Below, in pieces: positions 1 to 9,034 of a stretch of DNA of 64,000 nucleotides. The position numbers and the translations under genes were made by a program. This DNA comes from Actinomycetes bacterium (lineage in GTDB: Bacteria; Actinomycetota; Acidimicrobiia; Acidimicrobiales; Bog-793), in NCBI GenBank assembly GCA_021797795.1, contig JAJZZB010000003.1:13659-77658 (forward strand), given 5' to 3'. The notes below the pieces were generated by a model that worked only from the letters and a program-made list of their open reading frames with translations, did not search any database and was not told where the DNA came from. Position 1 is the stretch's first letter; every line of letters starts with the position of its first letter.

Positions 1-1273
1 GAGAGCGAGTCTTGGCCGCCGCCAGGACGGCGTCCACACGACTCGGCGTGGGGTCCAGGTGGTGTTCGTGCAGCCAGTAGACGACGTTCGACTTGCCGCT
101 CATCGGCCCGATGGAGATCTCCTGGCTCCTCCCGACGAGCGATGCCGGCACCGCGCTGTAGACACGGTCCGCCAGCCAGGAGTCGCCCTTGGCGTAGGCC
201 TTGGCGACGGCGGCCGCGTGGACGCCCGTGCTCGTGGCGAAGGCGTCTCGGCCGATCACCGGGTAGTTGCGCGGGATCGGGACGCCGGTCATCCTGCTGG
301 CGATCCGGCAGTAGGCGGGCAGGTCCAGCAGGTCGATGTCCTTCCATCCGAGAAGGGCGATGTTGACGAGCACGAGGTCGAGCGCCGTGTTGCCGACGCG
401 CTCGCCGATGCCGAGCGCGCACCCGTGGACGCGCCTCGCTCCGGCCGAGAGGGCGGCGAGGGCGTTCACGACGTCGAGCCCGCGGTCGCGATGGCCGTGC
501 CAGTCGATGGCGGCGTCGGCGAAGCCGTGCGAGGCCAGCTCGCCGGCGACGAACTGGACGATCTGCTGGACCCCCGACGGTGCCGCGTGGCCGACGGTGT
601 CCGAGATGCAGAAGCGGGTGGCGCCCGCCTCGGCGGCGGCGAGGTACATGGTGGCGATGTCCTCGCGGCGCGCCCGCGTGGTGTCCTCGGTGACGAACAT
701 CACCTCGAGACCTGCGCGGACGGCGTAAGAGACGGCCTGCTCGATCGTCCTCGCAAGGCTCGACACGTCCCAGTCCTCGACCAGCTGGCGGATCGGGCTC
801 GACCCGATGAACAGGGCGGCGTCGATCGGCACGCCCGAGCGCTGCTGCGCCTCGGCGATGGGGTCGATGTCGTTGACGTGAGTCCGTCCGGCGCAGTTGG
901 CCCGGAGAGGGAGCCGCTCGTCGGCGATCGTCCGGGCGAGCCCGATGACGTCACGCAAGGCTGCCTCGCTCGCGCCGGCATAGCCGATGTCGGCCGCGTC
1001 GATGCCGACTCGGGGCAGATGGCGGAGAAACTCCTGCTTCTCGGAGAGGGACGGCTGGCGAACCGATGGGCACTGGAGCCCGTCGCGCAGCGTCTCGTCG
1101 TTGAGCTCGATGACCGTCGCCGGTTCGAGCCGGCACAGGCGCGGGGCGATCTCGTTCCAGTCGTAGACGAGGTCGGTCGGCTCCTCGCCGGCCTCCGCCG
1201 CGGGCGGCGTCGTCTGGGACCTGCGACTCGTCGTCCGCCCCGCTCCGTTCGTCCGCTGCTCGCTGCGTGCCAC
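1..1273 (-). CDS. LeuA-like DRE-TIM metallolyase (2-isopropylmalate/citramalate synthase family), 3' end runs off the window
   Basis: Manual translation (not in ORF track): VIELNDETLRDGLQ, VTEDTTRA, SDTVGH, WHGHRDRG (HxH metal site), GIGERVGN, GVHAAA, GPMSGKSN; in-frame GTG at 1273 with a GGAG-like RBS. Confidence 0.85.
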   Translation of the reverse strand, partial: MARSEQRTNGAGRTTSRRSQTTPPAAEAGEEPTDLVYDWNEIAPRLCRLEPATVIELNDETLRDGLQCPSVRQPSLSEKQEFLRHLPRVGIDAADIGYAGASEAALRDVIGLARTIADERLPLRANCAGRTHVNDIDPIAEAQQRSGVPIDAALFIGSSPIRQLVEDWDVSSLARTIEQAVSYAVRAGLEVMFVTEDTTRARREDIATMYLAAAEAGATRFCISDTVGHAAPSGVQQIVQFVAGELASHGFADAAIDWHGHRDRGLDVVNALAALSAGARRVHGCALGIGERVGNTALDLVLVNIALLGWKDIDLLDLPAYCRIASRMTGVPIPRNYPVIGRDAFATSTGVHAAAVAKAYAKGDSWLADRVYSAVPASLVGRSQEISIGPMSGKSNVVYWLHEHHLDPTPSRVDAVLAAAKTRS

Positions 1274-1466
1274 AGGACTCCCTCCCGCTCTCGCCACCTA
1301 CGGGCGGCCCGTGGGGCCCGAGCCCCCGCGTGCACGCCCCTCCTGCCCGCTACAGCCTCCGGCGGGCATGGCAGGCGTGCGTCCAGGGCGCACCCCTGCA
1401 CCGGGATCACCCCTTCTATGCCAGGTACTTTGCTCTACGTACTGTGGCTAGCACTACGTAGTAGCC

Positions 1467-1495: not shown

Positions 1496-1516
1496 GTTCT
1501 TTCTTGGGGAGGCGCG

Positions 1517-2773
1517 ATGCCCCGGCGGCGGGAGGCGGAGGACGCCCGGTCAGCGACAAGGCAGGGTGGCGACGAGGCGGCACGGCGGACCCCGGCTGCC
1601 CGCGCCTCGGAGCCGGATCGGAAGAAGGCGGCACGGCCCCACTGGGCGGATCTCTACGCCGAGGTCGTCGGGAGCCGCCTCTGCAGCGGCTGCGGCGCCT
1701 GCGTGGTCACCTGCCCGCGAGGCGTGCTCGGCTATCGGGACACCTCCCCGTTCCAGGACGACGACGGCTCGTCCGCGCACTCCTGCCGTTTCGGTGAGGC
1801 CGGCTGCGACGCCTGCACCCGCGCCTGCCCCCGCTTTCGCGCTGGGCCGACGGGCGTCGACGAGGCGCTCTTCGGCCGGCGCCGCCAGTCGGACGAGGCG
1901 GCCGGCGTCTTCGTCTCCGCTCTCGCGCTGAGAGCGGCTGAGCGGGAATGGCGCGGCCACTCCCAGGACGGGGGCCTCGTCTCGATGCTCCTCGTCTGGG
2001 CCCTCGAGACCGGCCGGATCGACGGAGCCGTCGTCGCAGGGTCCCGCCCGGGGCATCCGCTTCGCGGGGAGCCGGCGATCGCCCGCACACGAGACGAGAT
2101 CCTCGCCGCTGCCGGCTCGCGCTACACCTACGTGCCGAACCTGCTCGCTCTCGCCGCTGCGGCGCCGCAGGAACGCCTTGCCCTCGTGGGCGTCGGATGT
2201 CAGGTGAGCGGCCTTGTGACCGCCCAGCAGGCGCGCCTCAAGCGGTTCCGCTCGGTCGTCTTCCGGATCGGCCTCATGTGCAGCGAAACCTTCTCCGAAG
2301 CCCCGTTCCTCGACGGCCTGCTCGCCGCCAGGCTCGGGCTCGATCTCCACAAGATCGAGAAGGTGAACGTGAAGGGCAGGGTGGTCGTCTCGACCGAGGG
2401 CTCCCACCACGGCCACCTCGCCTCGGGTCCGGTGGCGGGCAGCCGTGCGCGCGTCGGGGGCGACGGCCGGATCGAGATCCCACTCTCCGAGGCGCGCCCC
2501 CTCGCCCGCCTCCAGTGCGCGTCGTGCTCGGACTTCAGCGCCGAATGGTCGGACCTGTCCGCCGGGGGCCTCGGGCTCGACGGGTGGACCGTCGGTCTCG
2601 TCCGCTCGCCGCTCGCCCGGGCCTGGATCGACCTCATGCTCGCCGAAGGGCTGCTCGAAGCGCGCGATCTCGGGCAGTTCCCACAGGCGGAGCGGCTGAT
2701 GCAGCGCCTCGCCGAGGCGCAGCGCGAACGGCCAGGCATCCATAGGCTGCTGCAGCCGGCACAGGGAGGATGA
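1517..2773 (+). CDS. FrhB/FdhB-family (coenzyme F420 hydrogenase/dehydrogenase beta subunit-like) Fe-S flavoprotein with N-terminal ferredoxin-type motifs
   Basis: CSGCGACVVTCP, GCDACTRACP, SQDGGLVS, AAGSRY, VGVGCQ, IGLMCSETF, CASCSDFSAEWSDLSAGG; ATG 1517 after GGGAGG; upstream part of the 59..2773 ORF is antisense to the leuA-like gene. Confidence 0.85.
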   Translation: MPRRREAEDARSATRQGGDEAARRTPAARASEPDRKKAARPHWADLYAEVVGSRLCSGCGACVVTCPRGVLGYRDTSPFQDDDGSSAHSCRFGEAGCDACTRACPRFRAGPTGVDEALFGRRRQSDEAAGVFVSALALRAAEREWRGHSQDGGLVSMLLVWALETGRIDGAVVAGSRPGHPLRGEPAIARTRDEILAAAGSRYTYVPNLLALAAAAPQERLALVGVGCQVSGLVTAQQARLKRFRSVVFRIGLMCSETFSEAPFLDGLLAARLGLDLHKIEKVNVKGRVVVSTEGSHHGHLASGPVAGSRARVGGDGRIEIPLSEARPLARLQCASCSDFSAEWSDLSAGGLGLDGWTVGLVRSPLARAWIDLMLAEGLLEARDLGQFPQAERLMQRLAEAQRERPGIHRLLQPAQGG

Positions 2774-3259: not shown

Positions 3260-4291
3260 TCAGGCTCGCCCGGTCGGCACGGGCAGGCGCCCGGCGGCCT
3301 CGACGATCGCCTGCTCGACCGCCCTGCGAGTCATCTGCTTGCGCCAGACGTAGTGCAGGTCGGCGTTGTCGAGCGGCTTGGCGACCTTGGCCGCCTCGGC
3401 CGCCACCTCTGCCAGCAGGCCGTCCGCCCCGGCCAGCACGTCGGCGGTCAGCTCGCGGCCGATCAGCGGGGCGGCGGCGGCGCTCACGTCGAAGGGCCGC
3501 GACCCGACGGCGGTGAGCACGATCCGGCAGTCGTCGACGAGCGGGCCGCTCCGGCGGAGCGCCACGGCCACCCCGGCGAGGGGGAAGTCGATCGTGTTGC
3601 GCCGCCTGACCTTCACGTACGACGAGCACCAACTCCCCGGAGCCGGGAGGCGCACGCTCTCGACGACCTCGTCCGCCGACTTCTCGAGGTAGTACTGCCC
3701 GTCGTCGCGGTAGAGCCCGTCCACCGGCACCTCCCGCCGCCGTCCGGCCGGACCGGCGAGCACGACCGACGCGCCGAGGGCGATGGCGGCGGGGGCGGTG
3801 TCGGACGAGGCGATCGCCCGGCAGCGCTTGCTGGCCGGCGCGACCCGGCAGATGTCGCCGTCCTTCTTCATGCAGAACCCGCATGCCTGTCGCCACTCGA
3901 AGCTCATGTCGTAGTAGTTGCAGCGCGTGTCGACGCAGAGGTTTCCCCCGATCGTGCCGACGTTGCGCAGGGCGGGGGACGAGACGAGGGCGGCGGCTCG
4001 CACGTAGGCGGGGTAGGCGGCCGCCAGGCGGCGGTGCGCGCTCACCTCGGCGAGCGTCACCCCTGCCCCGATCAGGAACCCGCCCTCCTCGGTCTCGGTG
4101 ACGGCGCGCAGCTCGGCGAGGTGCCCGAGACCGATGAGGACCTCCGGCTCCATCTGGCCGCGCTTCATCTTCGGGACGAGATCGGTCCCGCCGGCGACGA
4201 GCATCGCCCGCTCCCCGTGCCGGGAGAGCAGCTCGGCTGCCTCCTCGACCGAGCCCGGGCGGAGATAGCTACAGGGCGGCAGTCGCAGCAT
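3260..4291 (-). CDS. FAD-binding subunit of a xanthine-oxidase-family Mo enzyme, 4-hydroxybenzoyl-CoA reductase beta (HcrB)-like, with [4Fe-4S] insertion
   Basis: VAGGTDL, RNVGTIGGNL, insertion CVDTRCNYY..CGFCMKKDGDICRVAPASKRC, RRRNTIDFPL. Confidence 0.85.
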   Translation of the reverse strand: MLRLPPCSYLRPGSVEEAAELLSRHGERAMLVAGGTDLVPKMKRGQMEPEVLIGLGHLAELRAVTETEEGGFLIGAGVTLAEVSAHRRLAAAYPAYVRAAALVSSPALRNVGTIGGNLCVDTRCNYYDMSFEWRQACGFCMKKDGDICRVAPASKRCRAIASSDTAPAAIALGASVVLAGPAGRRREVPVDGLYRDDGQYYLEKSADEVVESVRLPAPGSWCSSYVKVRRRNTIDFPLAGVAVALRRSGPLVDDCRIVLTAVGSRPFDVSAAAAPLIGRELTADVLAGADGLLAEVAAEAAKVAKPLDNADLHYVWRKQMTRRAVEQAIVEAAGRLPVPTGRA

Positions 4292-6644
4292 CTGGCGGAG
4301 CAACCTTCACGAGCGGCGGGTAGGGGATCTGCGGGAAGCTCTTCGGACCGTAGCGGGGCTCCTTGCCCTTGGCGCGGGCGTCGAGCGCCCGCACGACCTT
4401 GTCGGGCGTGACCGGGACCTCGTCGACCCAGACGCCGAGCGCCTCGTGGACCGCTGAGACCACCGCCGGGATGACCGGGAGGAGCGGACCCTGGCCGACC
4501 TCCTTCGCGCCATAGGGTCCCTCGGGATCGAGCGTCTCCACGAGGATGGTCTCCACCTCCGGCATGTCGAGGAAGGTGAGCGACTTGTAGTCGAGCATGC
4601 TCGGCTGGCGGAGCAGACCGTCGCGGTAGGCCTGCGCCTCCATGAGCACCTCGCCGAGGCCCATGTAGACGCCCCCTTCCACCTGGCCGCGCACGGCGAG
4701 CTCGTTGATCGAGCGTCCGATGTCGTGGCCCAGCCAGACCTTGTTGACCCGGATCTCGCCGCTGCGCCCGTCTGCGTCCAGGTCGACGACGGCGGCCGAG
4801 TAGCTGTAGGCAGGGCTCGGCCCCACCCCGGCGCCCTTGTAACGGCCGCCGATTCCCTGCGGGGGCGTGTAGCTGCCGCGCGTCGAGAGCGCCCCGAAGC
4901 GCGCCTCGGCGAGCGCAGCCGCTTCCTCGAAGGCGATGAGGCCGATCCTCCCGTCGGCCACCGCCACCTCGTCGGGGGCACAGCCCTTCTCCTCGGCGAC
5001 GGCCCGGACGAGCAGCTCCCGCATCCTGGCGGCGGCCTCACGGGCGGCGTTGCCAGCCATGAAGGTGACCCGCGACGAGTACGAACCGAGGTCGACGGGG
5101 GTGAGCCCGGTGTCGCCGGTCACGAGCCGGATGTCGCCCGGCGAGAGACCGAGCTCCTCGGCGGCGATCGTCGCCAGCACGGTGTCCGAGCCCTGCCCGA
5201 TGTCGGTGGCGCCGCTCAGCAGGGTAACCCCGCCCCGGCCGACGTTGAGGATGCACTCGCTGTGCGGCATCGTGTTCCAGTAGATGGGCAGTCCCGCACC
5301 GCACATGTAGCTCGACACGGCGAAGCCCATCCCGTGCCCCGGGCGCTTCACCCGGTGCTCGTAGCCCGAGGCCTCGAGCACCCGGTCGGTGACCTCGCCG
5401 AGGCCGCACGAGGTGATCCGCAGCCAGTTGACGGTCCGGGTGAAGGGCCGCACGTAGTTCCGGCGCCGGAGCTCCACGGGGTCGATCCCGAGGTCCGCAG
5501 CCAGCTTGTCGAGATGGACCTCGAGGGCAAAGCGGGGCTGGGGAGTCCCGTGGCCGCGCTTCGGGCCGCAGGGCGCCTTGTTGGTGAACACGCGGGCGCC
5601 CTCGAAGCGGTAGGCGGGGATGGCATAGGTGGTCGTCTGCAGGGCGCCGGTGTAGAGGGTCGACGCCGGCCCGTAGGAGCCGTACGCCCCGCCGTCGAGG
5701 GCGCTGCGGAAGTGCATGGCGAGGATGCGGCCGTCGCGGTCGACGCCGGTGCGGACCCACATCAGCACCGGATGCCGCCCACGGTGGGTGTAGAAGACCT
5801 CCTCGCGGGTGAGGGTGCACTTGACGGGACGGCCCGTCATCAACGAGAGCTTGCAGACGGCAATCTCATGGGAGAAGGGGTCGCACTTGCCTCCGAAGCC
5901 CCCGCCGTGCGGCGCCGCCACCACCCGGACGCTGCCCATCGGAAGACCGAGCACCTTGGCGAGCGCGCGGTGCACGTAATGGGGATCCTGGGTCGACGAC
6001 CACAGCGTCACCTTGTCGCCGACGGCCTGCGCGGTGGCCGAGTGCTGCTCCATCGGCAGGTGGGTGTTGCCCTCGAAGAAGAAGACGTCCTCGCGCACGT
6101 GGGCCGCCTCGGCGAAGCCGGCGTCCACGTCGCCGAACTCGAGGGCGGCGAGGCGGTGGACGTTCGCCGGGCCGGCGTAGCCGTGGATCGGCTCGTCGTC
6201 GGGCGAGACGAGGGCCTGCTCGATCGACTCGACCGCCTCGAGCGGCTCGTAGCCGACCTCGATCGCCCGGCAGGCGGCGAGGGCGGTCTCCTCGTCCACG
6301 GCCGCCACGGCCGCCACCGGGTCGCCGACGAAGCGGACCTTCTCGTGCTCGAGGGCGAGCTCGTCCTCGCAGGTCGGCATGATGCCGTACTTCACCGGGA
6401 GGTCGTCGCCGGTGATGACGGCGACCACGCCCGGCATCGCCCGAGCCGCACTCGTGTCGATCGACACGATGCGGGCGTAGGGATGCTGGCTGCGCAGCAG
6501 CTTGCAGAAGAGCATGCCGGGGAGATCGATGTCGTCGGCGTAGGCGATCGCACCCGTCACCTTGGCTGCCGCATCGACCTTCGGCAGCCCTTTGCCCACG
6601 ACGTGCAATTCGCCGGCTTCGCGTCCGGCTGCGGGCGTCGTCAC
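4269..6644 (-). CDS. Molybdopterin-binding large subunit, 4-hydroxybenzoyl-CoA reductase alpha (HcrA)-like
   Basis: KVTGAIAYADD, GGGFGGK, HRGRHP, YTGAL, NKAPCGPKRGHG, GATDIGQGS, GSYSSRVTFMAGNA, GAKEVGQG; GTG start with GTGA overlap. Confidence 0.85.
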   Translation of the reverse strand: MTTPAAGREAGELHVVGKGLPKVDAAAKVTGAIAYADDIDLPGMLFCKLLRSQHPYARIVSIDTSAARAMPGVVAVITGDDLPVKYGIMPTCEDELALEHEKVRFVGDPVAAVAAVDEETALAACRAIEVGYEPLEAVESIEQALVSPDDEPIHGYAGPANVHRLAALEFGDVDAGFAEAAHVREDVFFFEGNTHLPMEQHSATAQAVGDKVTLWSSTQDPHYVHRALAKVLGLPMGSVRVVAAPHGGGFGGKCDPFSHEIAVCKLSLMTGRPVKCTLTREEVFYTHRGRHPVLMWVRTGVDRDGRILAMHFRSALDGGAYGSYGPASTLYTGALQTTTYAIPAYRFEGARVFTNKAPCGPKRGHGTPQPRFALEVHLDKLAADLGIDPVELRRRNYVRPFTRTVNWLRITSCGLGEVTDRVLEASGYEHRVKRPGHGMGFAVSSYMCGAGLPIYWNTMPHSECILNVGRGGVTLLSGATDIGQGSDTVLATIAAEELGLSPGDIRLVTGDTGLTPVDLGSYSSRVTFMAGNAAREAAARMRELLVRAVAEEKGCAPDEVAVADGRIGLIAFEEAAALAEARFGALSTRGSYTPPQGIGGRYKGAGVGPSPAYSYSAAVVDLDADGRSGEIRVNKVWLGHDIGRSINELAVRGQVEGGVYMGLGEVLMEAQAYRDGLLRQPSMLDYKSLTFLDMPEVETILVETLDPEGPYGAKEVGQGPLLPVIPAVVSAVHEALGVWVDEVPVTPDKVVRALDARAKGKEPRYGPKSFPQIPYPPLVKVAPPDAATAAL

Positions 6645-7132
6645 CTGCCCGACCTCGCCGCATCCTCGACGGCGTCGAGGATGCCCGCGTAGCCGGTGCA
6701 CCGGCAGAGGTTGCCTGCCAGTGCCTCCCTGATCTCCTCACGCGTCGGCGAGGGGTTGGCGTCGAGGAGCGCTCTCGCCGCCAGGACCATGCCAGGGGTG
6801 CAGTAGCCGCACTGCAGCCCTCCTCGCTCCATGAAGGCCCGCTGGACGGCGTCGAGCGTCGCCCCGTCGGCCAGGCCTTCGATCGTGGTGACCTCGGCAC
6901 CTTCCACCTGAGCCGGCAGGAGCAGGCAGCTCAGCTGAGGAACTCCGCCGACGAGCACGGTGCACGCGCCGCACTCGCCGAGCTCGCAGCCGTGCTTGGT
7001 CCCCGTCAGGCGGAGCTCCTCGCGCAGCACCTCGAGGAGCGTGGCGTACGGCCTCACGAGCAGCTCGCGCTCCTCGCCGTTCACCGACAGGCGCAGCACC
7101 TCGCGGCGGACGGGCGGCCGCATGACCGTCAC
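6641..7132 (-). CDS. (2Fe-2S)-binding small subunit (HcrC/CoxS-like)
   Basis: GTKHGCELGECGACTV, QCGYCTPG, GNLCRCTGY. Confidence 0.92.
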   Translation of the reverse strand: MTVMRPPVRREVLRLSVNGEERELLVRPYATLLEVLREELRLTGTKHGCELGECGACTVLVGGVPQLSCLLLPAQVEGAEVTTIEGLADGATLDAVQRAFMERGGLQCGYCTPGMVLAARALLDANPSPTREEIREALAGNLCRCTGYAGILDAVEDAARSGR

Positions 7133-7650
7133 CTCGCCCTGGCGGCGAGGGCGACGAGCAACGGCTCGATGCCGCCGTGGCTGAGCACGTCGAGCATCTG
7201 CTCGGGGATCCTGTCGGCTCGAAGGTGCGCCCGTCCCTCGCCGACGACCACCTCCCCCGCCACGATGTCCACCTCGACCACCTCGTGGTCGTGCACCGTC
7301 GCGCTCACCCCCGGGCAGCTGAGCGCAGGCAGGCCGAGCGCGATCGCGTTGCGGGCGAAGATCCGGGCGAGCGAGTCGGCCACGACCAGCGCGACGCCGA
7401 GGTCCTTCAGGTGCTGCGGGGCGGACTCCCGGCTCGAGCCGCAGCCGAAGTTCGCCCCGGCGACGAGGATGTCGCCCGGGCGTACCTGCGAGGCGAACTC
7501 GGGGCGGGCGGGCTCGAGGACGTGACGGAGCCGGATCTCCGGCGGGTCGTGGACGTACTGGCCGGGCGAGAGCATGTCCGTGCTGATGTCCGGCCCGAAC
7601 AGCCAGGCCCGGCCGCGAAGGCGGGTCATCTCGGGGGGAGTGCTCGTCAC
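7129..7650 (-). CDS. LeuD-like dehydratase small subunit (aconitase swivel domain)
   Basis: GRAWLFGPDISTDMLSPG, GANFGCGSSRESA, FARNAIALGLP; GTGA overlaps at both ends. Confidence 0.9.
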   Translation of the reverse strand: MTSTPPEMTRLRGRAWLFGPDISTDMLSPGQYVHDPPEIRLRHVLEPARPEFASQVRPGDILVAGANFGCGSSRESAPQHLKDLGVALVVADSLARIFARNAIALGLPALSCPGVSATVHDHEVVEVDIVAGEVVVGEGRAHLRADRIPEQMLDVLSHGGIEPLLVALAARAR

Positions 7651-8951
7651 CTCGTCACCTCCTGTCGCGTGTCGCTCACCGCCAGCTCGCGTGGATCGGC
7701 GATGACCCCGGCGAGGGCGGAGGCGGCGGCCGTGGCCGGGGAGCCGAGGTAGACCTCGCCCTCCGGGCTGCCCATGCGGCCCCGGAAGTTGCGGTTGTGC
7801 GTCCCGAGGCAGCGCTCGCCCGGCGCGAGCAGACCGAGGTGGCCACCGAAGCACGGGCCGCAGCCCGGTCCCTCGATGATGGCGCCCGCCGCCGACAGCT
7901 CGGTGAGGACGCCCTCCTCCGCCGCCTGGCGGTAGACGGTCGAGGAGGCCGGCGTGACGATCATGCGCAGGCCGGAGGCGATCCTGCGGCCCCGGAGGAT
8001 GCGAGCCGCCTCGCGCAGGTCCTCGATCCTGCCGTTGGTGCACGAGCCGAGGAATACCTGGTCGAGGTGCAGGCCGGCGACCTCTCCCACGTCGACGACG
8101 TTCTCGACGTGGTGCGGAACGGCGACCTGAGGCGAGAGGGCGGACAGGTCGACATGGTGGGTGGCGGCGTAGCGGGCACCGTCGCGCGCCGTGGCTGCGC
8201 CGGCGGCCGGGAACAGTGAGAACTTCGCACCCATCTCGACGCCCATGTTCGCAATGGTCATCCGCTCGGCGAGTGACAACGAGTCCGCACCCGAGCCGCC
8301 GTGCTCGATCGAGCGGTACTGCGCCTCGCTCGAGCCGATCTCGCGCACGAGGAACAGCACGAGGTCCTTCGCCGCCACGGACGGCGCCAGCCGACCCTCG
8401 AGCGCGACGAGGACGGTCTCGGGCACCTTGAACCAGAGCTCCCCGGTGGCCAGGGCGTAGGCCATCTCCGAGCTGCCGATGCCACAGCCGGCCGCACCGA
8501 GGGCCCCGTAGGTCGTCGAGTGCGAGTCGGTGCCGACCACGAGGTCGCCCGGCCGGACGCGGCCCTCCTCGACCATCACCTGGTGGCAGATCCCGCGGCC
8601 GATCTCGAAGAAGGCCTCGATCCCGTAGCGCCGGACGAGTCGCCGCGCCTTGGCCTGGTGCTCGGCTGCGGCGACGGAGGGTGCCGGCACCATGTGGTCG
8701 AAGACCACGGTGGCGCGGCCGGGGTCGTGCAGGCGCTCGATCCCGGCCCGCTCCAGCATGCCGAGGACGTCGGCGGCGAAGATGTCGTGCATCATCATTG
8801 CGTCGATCTTCGCGACGACGTACTCGCCGGGCTCCACCCGGGCGGCCCCGCTGGCCCTGGCGAGGACGGTCTCGGCAGCCGTCATCTCAGGCGGCTCCGC
8901 CGCTCCGCTCGCGTCCTTCGCCAGACGCTCGATCCTCGCGTTCGCTGTCAT
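7647..8951 (-). CDS. LeuC-like dehydratase large subunit ([4Fe-4S] aconitase family)
   Basis: VFDHMVP, GICHQV, GTDSHSTTYGALG, FLGSCTNGR, GCGPCFGGHLG, THNRNFRGRMG. Confidence 0.9.
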   Translation of the reverse strand: MTANARIERLAKDASGAAEPPEMTAAETVLARASGAARVEPGEYVVAKIDAMMMHDIFAADVLGMLERAGIERLHDPGRATVVFDHMVPAPSVAAAEHQAKARRLVRRYGIEAFFEIGRGICHQVMVEEGRVRPGDLVVGTDSHSTTYGALGAAGCGIGSSEMAYALATGELWFKVPETVLVALEGRLAPSVAAKDLVLFLVREIGSSEAQYRSIEHGGSGADSLSLAERMTIANMGVEMGAKFSLFPAAGAATARDGARYAATHHVDLSALSPQVAVPHHVENVVDVGEVAGLHLDQVFLGSCTNGRIEDLREAARILRGRRIASGLRMIVTPASSTVYRQAAEEGVLTELSAAGAIIEGPGCGPCFGGHLGLLAPGERCLGTHNRNFRGRMGSPEGEVYLGSPATAAASALAGVIADPRELAVSDTRQEVTR

Positions 8952-9034
8952 TGCTGCCTCCTCGTTCCGTCCATGCCCTCCCGGCTCGGGCCCACCTGCC
9001 CGGGCACCGGGAGAGGGAGCCGTCTCGAGCATGC

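Follow-up and report, generated by a model that had tools for sequence, protein, structure and literature searches.

The 64,000 nucleotide stretch analysed here (hereafter the window), part of contig JAJZZB010000003.1 of an actinobacterial metagenome-assembled genome (MAG), contains a minus-strand operon that encodes, in this order, a ferredoxin, a pair of proteins with the coenzyme A (CoA)-transferase fold, a BadH-like dehydrogenase, a LeuCD-like hydratase and homologues of HcrC, HcrA and HcrB, the subunits of 4-hydroxybenzoyl-CoA reductase (HBCR, or 4-HBCR). Here we describe the hcrA-like gene (4269..6644, minus strand), which encodes the molybdenum subunit that binds molybdopterin cytosine dinucleotide, and in which a glutamine occupies the column of the catalytic glutamate of the xanthine oxidase family. 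Upstream lies the hcrC-like gene for a subunit with two [2Fe-2S] clusters (6641..7132, minus strand) and downstream the hcrB-like gene for the flavin adenine dinucleotide (FAD) subunit (3260..4303, minus strand). The latter includes an HcrB-type insertion with the Cys ligands of an extra [4Fe-4S] cluster (minus strand, approximately 3809..3952, placed by alignment to HcrB).

The window DNA is 72% G+C and the hcrA-like open reading frame (ORF) reads open over 4269-6701 of the minus strand, giving 810 residues. A GTG at 6644, overlapping the hcrC stop, is the likely start; the resulting protein of 791 residues equals the database form P0004 in length. In the AlphaFold2 (AF2) model presented below, low confidence is confined to residues 1-29 of the long ORF. 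Read on the minus strand, 4511-4485 is GGC GCG AAG GAG GTC GGC CAG GGT CCG, nine codons for the motif GAKEVGQGP (residues 731-739; 4485..4511), that is, the family's GAK(G/E)xGE loop with its Glu replaced by Gln. The CAG codon at 4493-4491 (4491..4493, minus strand) specifies Gln737 of the 810-residue ORF, which is Gln718 in the 791-residue form. A phmmer search against all PDB chains aligned GPYGAKEVGQGPLLP with GPFGAKEASEGMLAG of Thauera HcrA (1RM6_A), gapless and with conserved flanks, and in the same column showed Glu in CoxL of CO dehydrogenase (8UEM) and in 6-hydroxypseudooxynicotine dehydrogenase (7DQX). A molybdenum subunit of this family is expected to carry a catalytic Glu in the GAKxxGE loop (bovine E1261); here that Glu is absent, its column being held by Gln737. 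An earlier note on this DNA, made from the sequence letters, had read CAG at 4491-4493 as a Gln in the catalytic Glu column and had named the motifs GAKEASEG, YTGAL and GSYSSRVTFM; its reading of the column was correct and all of these motifs occur in the alignment with Thauera HcrA.

The other defining features of 4-HBCR are kept. The best PDB match of the alpha subunit was Thauera HcrA (1RM6_A, E=1.5e-167; next best 3.8e-80), and those of the beta and gamma subunits were HcrB (1.8e-56) and HcrC (4.7e-51). Alpha matches the Pfam families Ald_Xan_dh_C, MoCoBD_1 and MoCoBD_2 with E-values of 7.6e-31, 4.7e-76 and 1.6e-59, all above the gathering scores. The motifs of the cofactor site, namely the Gln of STQ, GGGFGGK, the Arg of RGHG, DIGQGS and GSYSSR, are invariant or nearly so in the window protein and its clade, and the molybdenum-site motifs Q238, GGGFGGK, R382, DIGQGS, GSYSSRVT and GAKE are common to Gln- and Glu-containing groups. 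The HBCR insertion of about 40 residues in the FAD subunit keeps all four of its Cys residues in the window, and the loop is kept in 48 of 49 members of the Gln clade. The gene order gamma-alpha-beta (C-A-B) is found in the window and at every locus with all three genes. The AF2 model of alpha has a predicted local distance difference test score of 91.7 and a predicted template modelling (TM) score of 0.91, and superposes on chain A of 1RM6 with TM scores of 0.90/0.96 and a root mean square deviation (rmsd) of 1.4-1.5 A; other folds of the family give TM scores of about 0.8-0.83 and an rmsd above 3 A. In the comparison with T. aromatica 4-HBCR that the earlier note had proposed, the alignment places Gln in the Glu column and the model shows a shared fold.

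The substitution is fixed. Gln is found in all 121 database homologues with more than 70% identity and, when 80 related loci were fetched from species-representative genomes, at every locus that covers the site (75 readable), down to 53% identity, with CAG as codon in 73 and CAA in two. The hosts are MAGs of Actinomycetota, Methylomirabilota, Gemmatimonadota, Planctomycetota, Pseudomonadota, Myxococcota, Verrucomicrobiota and Acidobacteriota. Logan contigs from four public runs of three studies (mine drainage, sediment) that span 4269-4596 show nearby strain differences but none at 4491-4493, which rules out an error of assembly or sequencing. The neighbouring Glu734 of the KE pair was considered as a relocated catalytic residue and rejected, being shared with the Glu-bearing HcrA-like proteins including that of Thauera. 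The earlier note's two reservations, that Gln could be unique to this assembly or the preceding Glu could hold the catalytic position, are both answered in the negative by the sequence data.

A wider family sample consisted of 150 representatives of 50%-identity clusters, about 140 of them full-length, most of which have Glu at the column. Gln occurs in the representatives of the window's lineage (P0124, P0126, P0136 and P0256) and, independently, in P0146 (a Dehalococcoidia MAG) and P0204, and about ten other cluster representatives show R, D, L, M, I or A. Loss of the Glu seems recurrent in uncharacterised lineages of the wider family; representatives with a non-Glu residue (Q, R, D, L, M, I or A) include P0146, P0182, P0202, P0204, P0209, P0223, P0229, P0240, P0252, P0262 and P0272. 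Trees made with FastTree and IQ-TREE both show the main Gln clade as one group of 12 rows from six phyla, with support values of 86 and 96 in the Shimodaira-Hasegawa-like approximate likelihood ratio test (SH-aLRT). The clade is nested among Glu-type proteins, from which it follows that Gln was derived from a Glu-type ancestor, and lies inside the HBCR-like clade that holds P0143, the representative of the Thauera HcrA cluster (1017 bits to 1RM6_A, 1302 bits to TIGR03194); it thus falls within the clade of the characterised Thauera enzyme. Comparison of 64 Gln-type with 16 Glu-type sequences identified position 737 as the only absolutely discriminating column. Partial companions of the clade are V346A, T347S and P358T, all in helix 344-358, and a C-terminal tail of about 30 residues (4272..4370, minus strand) is a conserved feature of the Gln clade that most Glu-type relatives lack. 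The tail is rich in proline, with the pattern G-K-x-P-R-x-G-P-x-x-F-P ... R-V-x-P-P-W.

Gene neighbourhoods were compared by clustering the neighbours in 61 long loci, using BLAST of ORFs filtered on G+C content at third codon positions. In 36 of the 61 the operon continues with a regulator, boxC, boxB and often a gene of the Rid family; the operon's boxC scores 904 bits against a cut-off of 712 and its boxB 864 against 499. A gene of the benzoate-CoA ligase family is then present in 28 of 61 loci, as is a PaaK-like ligase (28 of 61). Fourteen loci hold a Rid-family (enamine/imine deaminase) gene, and aminotransferase genes are present at some. In Methylomirabilota/Rokubacteria (L010-L062; e.g. 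L056:9464-20500 and L016:9487-19500) hcrCAB, regulator, boxC, boxB, Rid-family gene and two aryl-CoA ligases form a single block on the same strand. An indolepyruvate:ferredoxin oxidoreductase (IOR) alpha gene lies near hcrCAB in six loci, and in a gammaproteobacterial MAG (L066:6723-8531, minus strand) such a gene, at 697 bits over its cut-off, stands divergently beside Gln-type hcrCAB; its product could supply both reduced ferredoxin and aryl-CoA substrates.

Co-occurrence was determined genome-wide in 151 Methylomirabilota genomes and in 151 genomes of the window's own class. Since three of the former (G033, G062 and G105) are unpublished, and used for no other result, tallies without them follow in brackets. 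In Methylomirabilota, Gln-type HcrA occurs in 103 of 151 genomes (101) and BoxB in 90 (87), with 85 carrying both (83), 18 HcrA only (18), five BoxB only (4) and 43 neither (43). The window's class has the enzyme in eight genomes, BoxB in seven and both in five, against 0.4 expected, the two genes not being adjacent; in the three that carry the enzyme and lack BoxB, a BcrB-like gene lies at a distance of 3-18 kb from hcrA. All these counts are descriptive, because related genomes are not independent. The window's own genome, a 3.8 Mb MAG that is 94% complete, has a single HcrA-like gene, and a second HcrA-like paralogue was found neither there nor in the surveyed Methylomirabilota genomes. Its contig C189 (L090:668-16966) carries four BcrCBAD-like genes, all below equivalog cut-offs, with a benzoate-CoA ligase, a PaaX-like regulator, boxC, boxB, a fused 2-oxoacid:ferredoxin oxidoreductase of the IOR family (1195 residues) and another acyl-CoA ligase. 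This actinobacterial MAG hence has the ATP-dependent type of ring reductase beside the O2-dependent epoxidase route. Benzoyl-CoA is the common denominator of all the Gln-type hcrCAB contexts, and linkage to its consumers (BoxB/BoxC, benzoyl-CoA reductase (BCR)-like enzymes, benzoate-CoA ligases) is as expected if the enzyme still makes benzoyl-CoA.

With Gln fixed in the catalytic column and Glu734 not being a relocated base, the textbook base-catalysed step cannot operate and some of the chemistry must differ. Where the earlier note had proposed a different chemistry or substrate, the former stands; a different substrate or role is possible but less probable. On balance we favour the view, though by no means firmly, that the HcrCAB-type enzyme, a member of a large uncharacterised subclade of the 4-HBCR lineage, is a ferredoxin-driven aryl-CoA reductase that yields benzoyl-CoA without a general-base Glu. 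The direction of electron flow, the substrate and the role of Gln737 we infer as follows. Low-potential electrons would come from the small ferredoxin encoded at the operon head (11488..11775, minus strand), the likely electron donor, which the IOR-family enzyme of contig C189 may in turn reduce. They would pass from the [4Fe-4S] cluster via FAD and the [2Fe-2S] clusters to molybdenum; the HBCR-type [4Fe-4S] loop points to electron flow in that direction. At molybdenum a ring substituent of an aromatic acyl-CoA would be reductively removed, most simply the 4-hydroxyl of 4-hydroxybenzoyl-CoA to give benzoyl-CoA, which BoxB/BoxC or the BCR-like reductase of the same genome would then take. Gln737 stands in place of the Glu with which hydroxylating members take the proton from Mo-OH to ready it for nucleophilic attack, reviews describing this Glu as essential and as the base that activates Mo-OH (PMC13653126, PMC10420851). 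Loss of the base implies that the enzyme should be unable to run in the oxidative, hydroxylating direction and that protons at Mo-OH need another route; the amide of Gln could form a hydrogen bond with the molybdenum-bound oxygen. In short, the enzyme probably still makes benzoyl-CoA but cannot do so by the textbook mechanism.

Several points weigh against a benzoyl-CoA-forming reductase of the 4-HBCR lineage. The Thauera enzyme is oxygen-sensitive, which is odd beside an operon shared with O2-dependent BoxB. To our knowledge all other known members of the family keep the Glu, and a member that lacks it may have another activity. All three subunits have HBCR as best NCBIfam model yet remain below the equivalog cut-offs, alpha with 783.6 bits (TIGR03194, 994.55), beta with 299.2 (TIGR03195, 404.55) and gamma with 189.4 (TIGR03193, 257.8); the cut-offs do not separate Gln-type from Glu-type proteins, because the Glu-type sister groups also fall short of that of TIGR03194, which the Thauera cluster representative alone passes. 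All Gln-clade members traced are MAG-derived and the clade is uncharacterised, and the context in Gemmatimonadota, Planctomycetota and some proteobacterial loci is uninformative. Finally, the urolithin C 9-dehydroxylase UcdCFO of Enterocloster, a reductive member of the xanthine oxidase family that removes a phenolic hydroxyl, keeps the conserved Glu in UcdO (E741) (PMC11760930).

The main rival retains the architecture and the product but changes the substrate or leaving group, for instance to 2-hydroxybenzoyl-CoA or, by reductive deamination, to 2- or 4-aminobenzoyl-CoA, with Gln adapted to the group bound at molybdenum. At the active site the catalytic residue differs and the remainder is conserved, the few clade-specific changes (V346A, T347S, P358T) gather in helix 344-358, the box-linked operons include two different aryl-CoA ligases, and Rid-family and, in places, aminotransferase genes accompany them. 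Salicyloyl-CoA dehydroxylation and aminobenzoyl-CoA deamination have been measured in anaerobes, and no enzyme is known to be assigned to either. On the other hand, a single column separates the clades absolutely, which gives no sign of a remodelled pocket, and Rid and aminotransferase genes are confined to a minority of loci. The sequence data do not separate this option from 4-hydroxybenzoyl-CoA reduction, and we consider it possible but distinctly less probable.

A function inside the box pathway appears improbable. The enzyme would there either stand in for a missing BoxA as electron source of the BoxB epoxidase, perhaps through oxidation of BoxC products (semialdehyde or formate), or deoxygenate 2,3-epoxybenzoyl-CoA to benzoyl-CoA. 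BoxA (TIGR03224, a model with two [4Fe-4S] clusters and an FNR-like NADPH/FAD domain) was not found over its cut-off in any of the 151 Methylomirabilota genomes, 88 of which have BoxB over cut-off, nor in five of five further genomes that carry the enzyme, nor in the window's genome, where the small ferredoxin of the operon gave the best match (28 bits). The conserved hcrCAB-regulator-boxC-boxB operon encodes no redox complex other than HcrCAB. Against this, HcrCAB subunits are unrelated to BoxA, some genomes with the Gln enzyme lack BoxB and have the enzyme near BCR-like genes, and two betaproteobacterial MAGs combine it with a canonical BoxA beside BoxB. In the window's genome it is not near boxCB, the family's aldehyde oxidation likewise needs Glu, and ferredoxin reduced by the IOR-family enzyme beside boxCB could serve BoxB instead. 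The simplest form, a plain substitute for BoxA, was rejected on the basis of the carriers with canonical BoxA and the BoxB-less carriers with a BcrB-like gene. As a comparison for BoxD, aldehyde dehydrogenase genes were sought within 20 kb of a canonical betaproteobacterial box cluster and none was found.

Still less probable is a catalytically dead molybdenum site in a complex retained solely for electron transfer or a structural role. In bacterial xanthine dehydrogenase, E-to-Q exchange abolishes activity. The lost residue is regarded as essential (PMC13653126). Yet the molybdenum cofactor motifs and the entire 790-residue subunit are strongly conserved across at least six phyla at 53-93% identity, Gln is invariant rather than drifting and the AF2 model is confident throughout; conservation of both the subunit and the Gln makes a dead site unlikely. 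An artefact, be it a sequencing or assembly error or a misalignment that hides Glu734 as the true catalytic residue, is hardly credible, since beyond the presence of that Glu three residues upstream of Gln737 we found no support for it, while the same codon recurs in contigs from three other studies and more than 70 independent assemblies, the alignment to Thauera HcrA is gapless between conserved flanks and Glu734 is equally present in Thauera HcrA and all Glu-type relatives, alongside their catalytic Glu.

The Gln variant is new to the literature searched, where no paper was found on it or on a link between hcr and box genes, only homology-based annotations; one preprint names such genes by homology alone. 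The conserved Glu is held to be indispensable across the xanthine oxidase family, yet here a natural clade of several phyla, under purifying selection and with the whole active-site scaffold, always has Gln. It is therefore a ready-made test of the role of Glu in the reductive direction, the mechanism of 4-HBCR not being established by the literature searched. The annotation 4-hydroxybenzoyl-CoA reductase is carried by hundreds of soil MAGs and is used to infer anaerobic degradation of aromatics, which rests on a presumed equivalence. The tight coupling to boxCB points to a hybrid pathway for phenolics of plant origin, with a reductive peripheral step followed by oxygen-dependent attack on the ring, of which we found no description in the literature searched. 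A more far-reaching and clearly speculative proposal is that the Gln clade is a mechanistically new molybdenum aryl-CoA reductase without a general acid/base at molybdenum, either a one-way, oxygen-compatible dehydroxylase that feeds phenolic acids to the box pathway in aerobes or the long-sought enzyme of an orphan reaction (such as reductive aminobenzoyl-CoA deamination or salicyloyl-CoA dehydroxylation), in BoxA-less phyla maybe also coupled to BoxB.

The remaining operon genes, all on the minus strand, lie between the ferredoxin and hcrC. The CoA-transferase-fold pair (9802..11468; A 10593-11468, B 9802-10590) shows weak matches to Pfam CoA_trans (E = 1.5e-11 and 3.1e-26) and its subunit B matched no NCBIfam model. 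The pair occurs near Gln-type hcrCAB in 17-19 of the 61 loci; related pairs with 31-40% identity stand near it in many Rokubacterial loci. The short-chain dehydrogenase (9035..9799) has as best match BadH, 2-hydroxycyclohexanecarboxyl-CoA dehydrogenase, below the curated cut-off, and the LeuC/LeuD-like pair of the aconitase family, a hydratase (7129..9038), is syntenic only in close actinobacterial relatives, to which the arrangement of the operon is common. Upstream of the operon are a TetR regulator, a Liv-type binding protein and a gene of the enoyl-CoA hydratase family (14157..14996, minus strand). In the region past the operon end (1505-2773, plus strand, and 2-1297, minus strand), genes for a stand-alone FrhB-family protein with ferredoxin-type motifs and a universal stress protein (Usp) converge on the operon, and a LeuA/homocitrate-synthase-like DRE-TIM gene lies beyond them; synteny of the Usp and HMGL-like genes extends to the closest relatives (L002, L075).

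Among known systems, HcrCAB of Thauera aromatica (1RM6/1SB3; TIGR03193-5) is closest. Both have three subunits in C-A-B order, each with its best match in the Thauera complex, the beta loop with [4Fe-4S] Cys ligands, the motifs GAKE, YTGAL and GSYSSRVTFM, a common fold (TM 0.90/0.96), an operon-encoded ferredoxin and a link to benzoyl-CoA metabolism. The window enzyme differs in having Gln for the catalytic Glu, an alpha identity of about 40% (Foldseek), subunits below the equivalog cut-offs and the extra tail of about 30 residues on alpha; the hosts of the Gln type are uncultured bacteria from soil, sediment and mine drainage, and it is often co-operonic with O2-dependent boxCB rather than part of an anaerobic-only pathway. 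The nearest relatives, at 45-53% identity and in the same HBCR-like clade, are Glu-type HcrA-like proteins of uncultured Ignavibacteriales, Kiritimatiellia and others (P0125, P0127-P0133), which like the Gln type are uncharacterised and below the TIGR03194 cut-off, but have Glu in 16 of 16 and in several cases are fused to a [2Fe-2S] domain (930-950 residues). UcdCFO differs in an FAD subunit without the extra [4Fe-4S] loop and in a substrate that is not a CoA thioester (PMC11760930). The hydroxylating members (xanthine dehydrogenase/oxidase, aldehyde oxidoreductases, CO dehydrogenase and the quinoline and nicotinate dehydrogenases) share the Pfam set, the molybdenum cofactor motifs and the fold at a TM of about 0.8; they depend on Glu as general base (PMC13653126, PMC10420851) and their electrons leave molybdenum, whereas the window enzyme combines the absence of that Glu with an HBCR-type loop.

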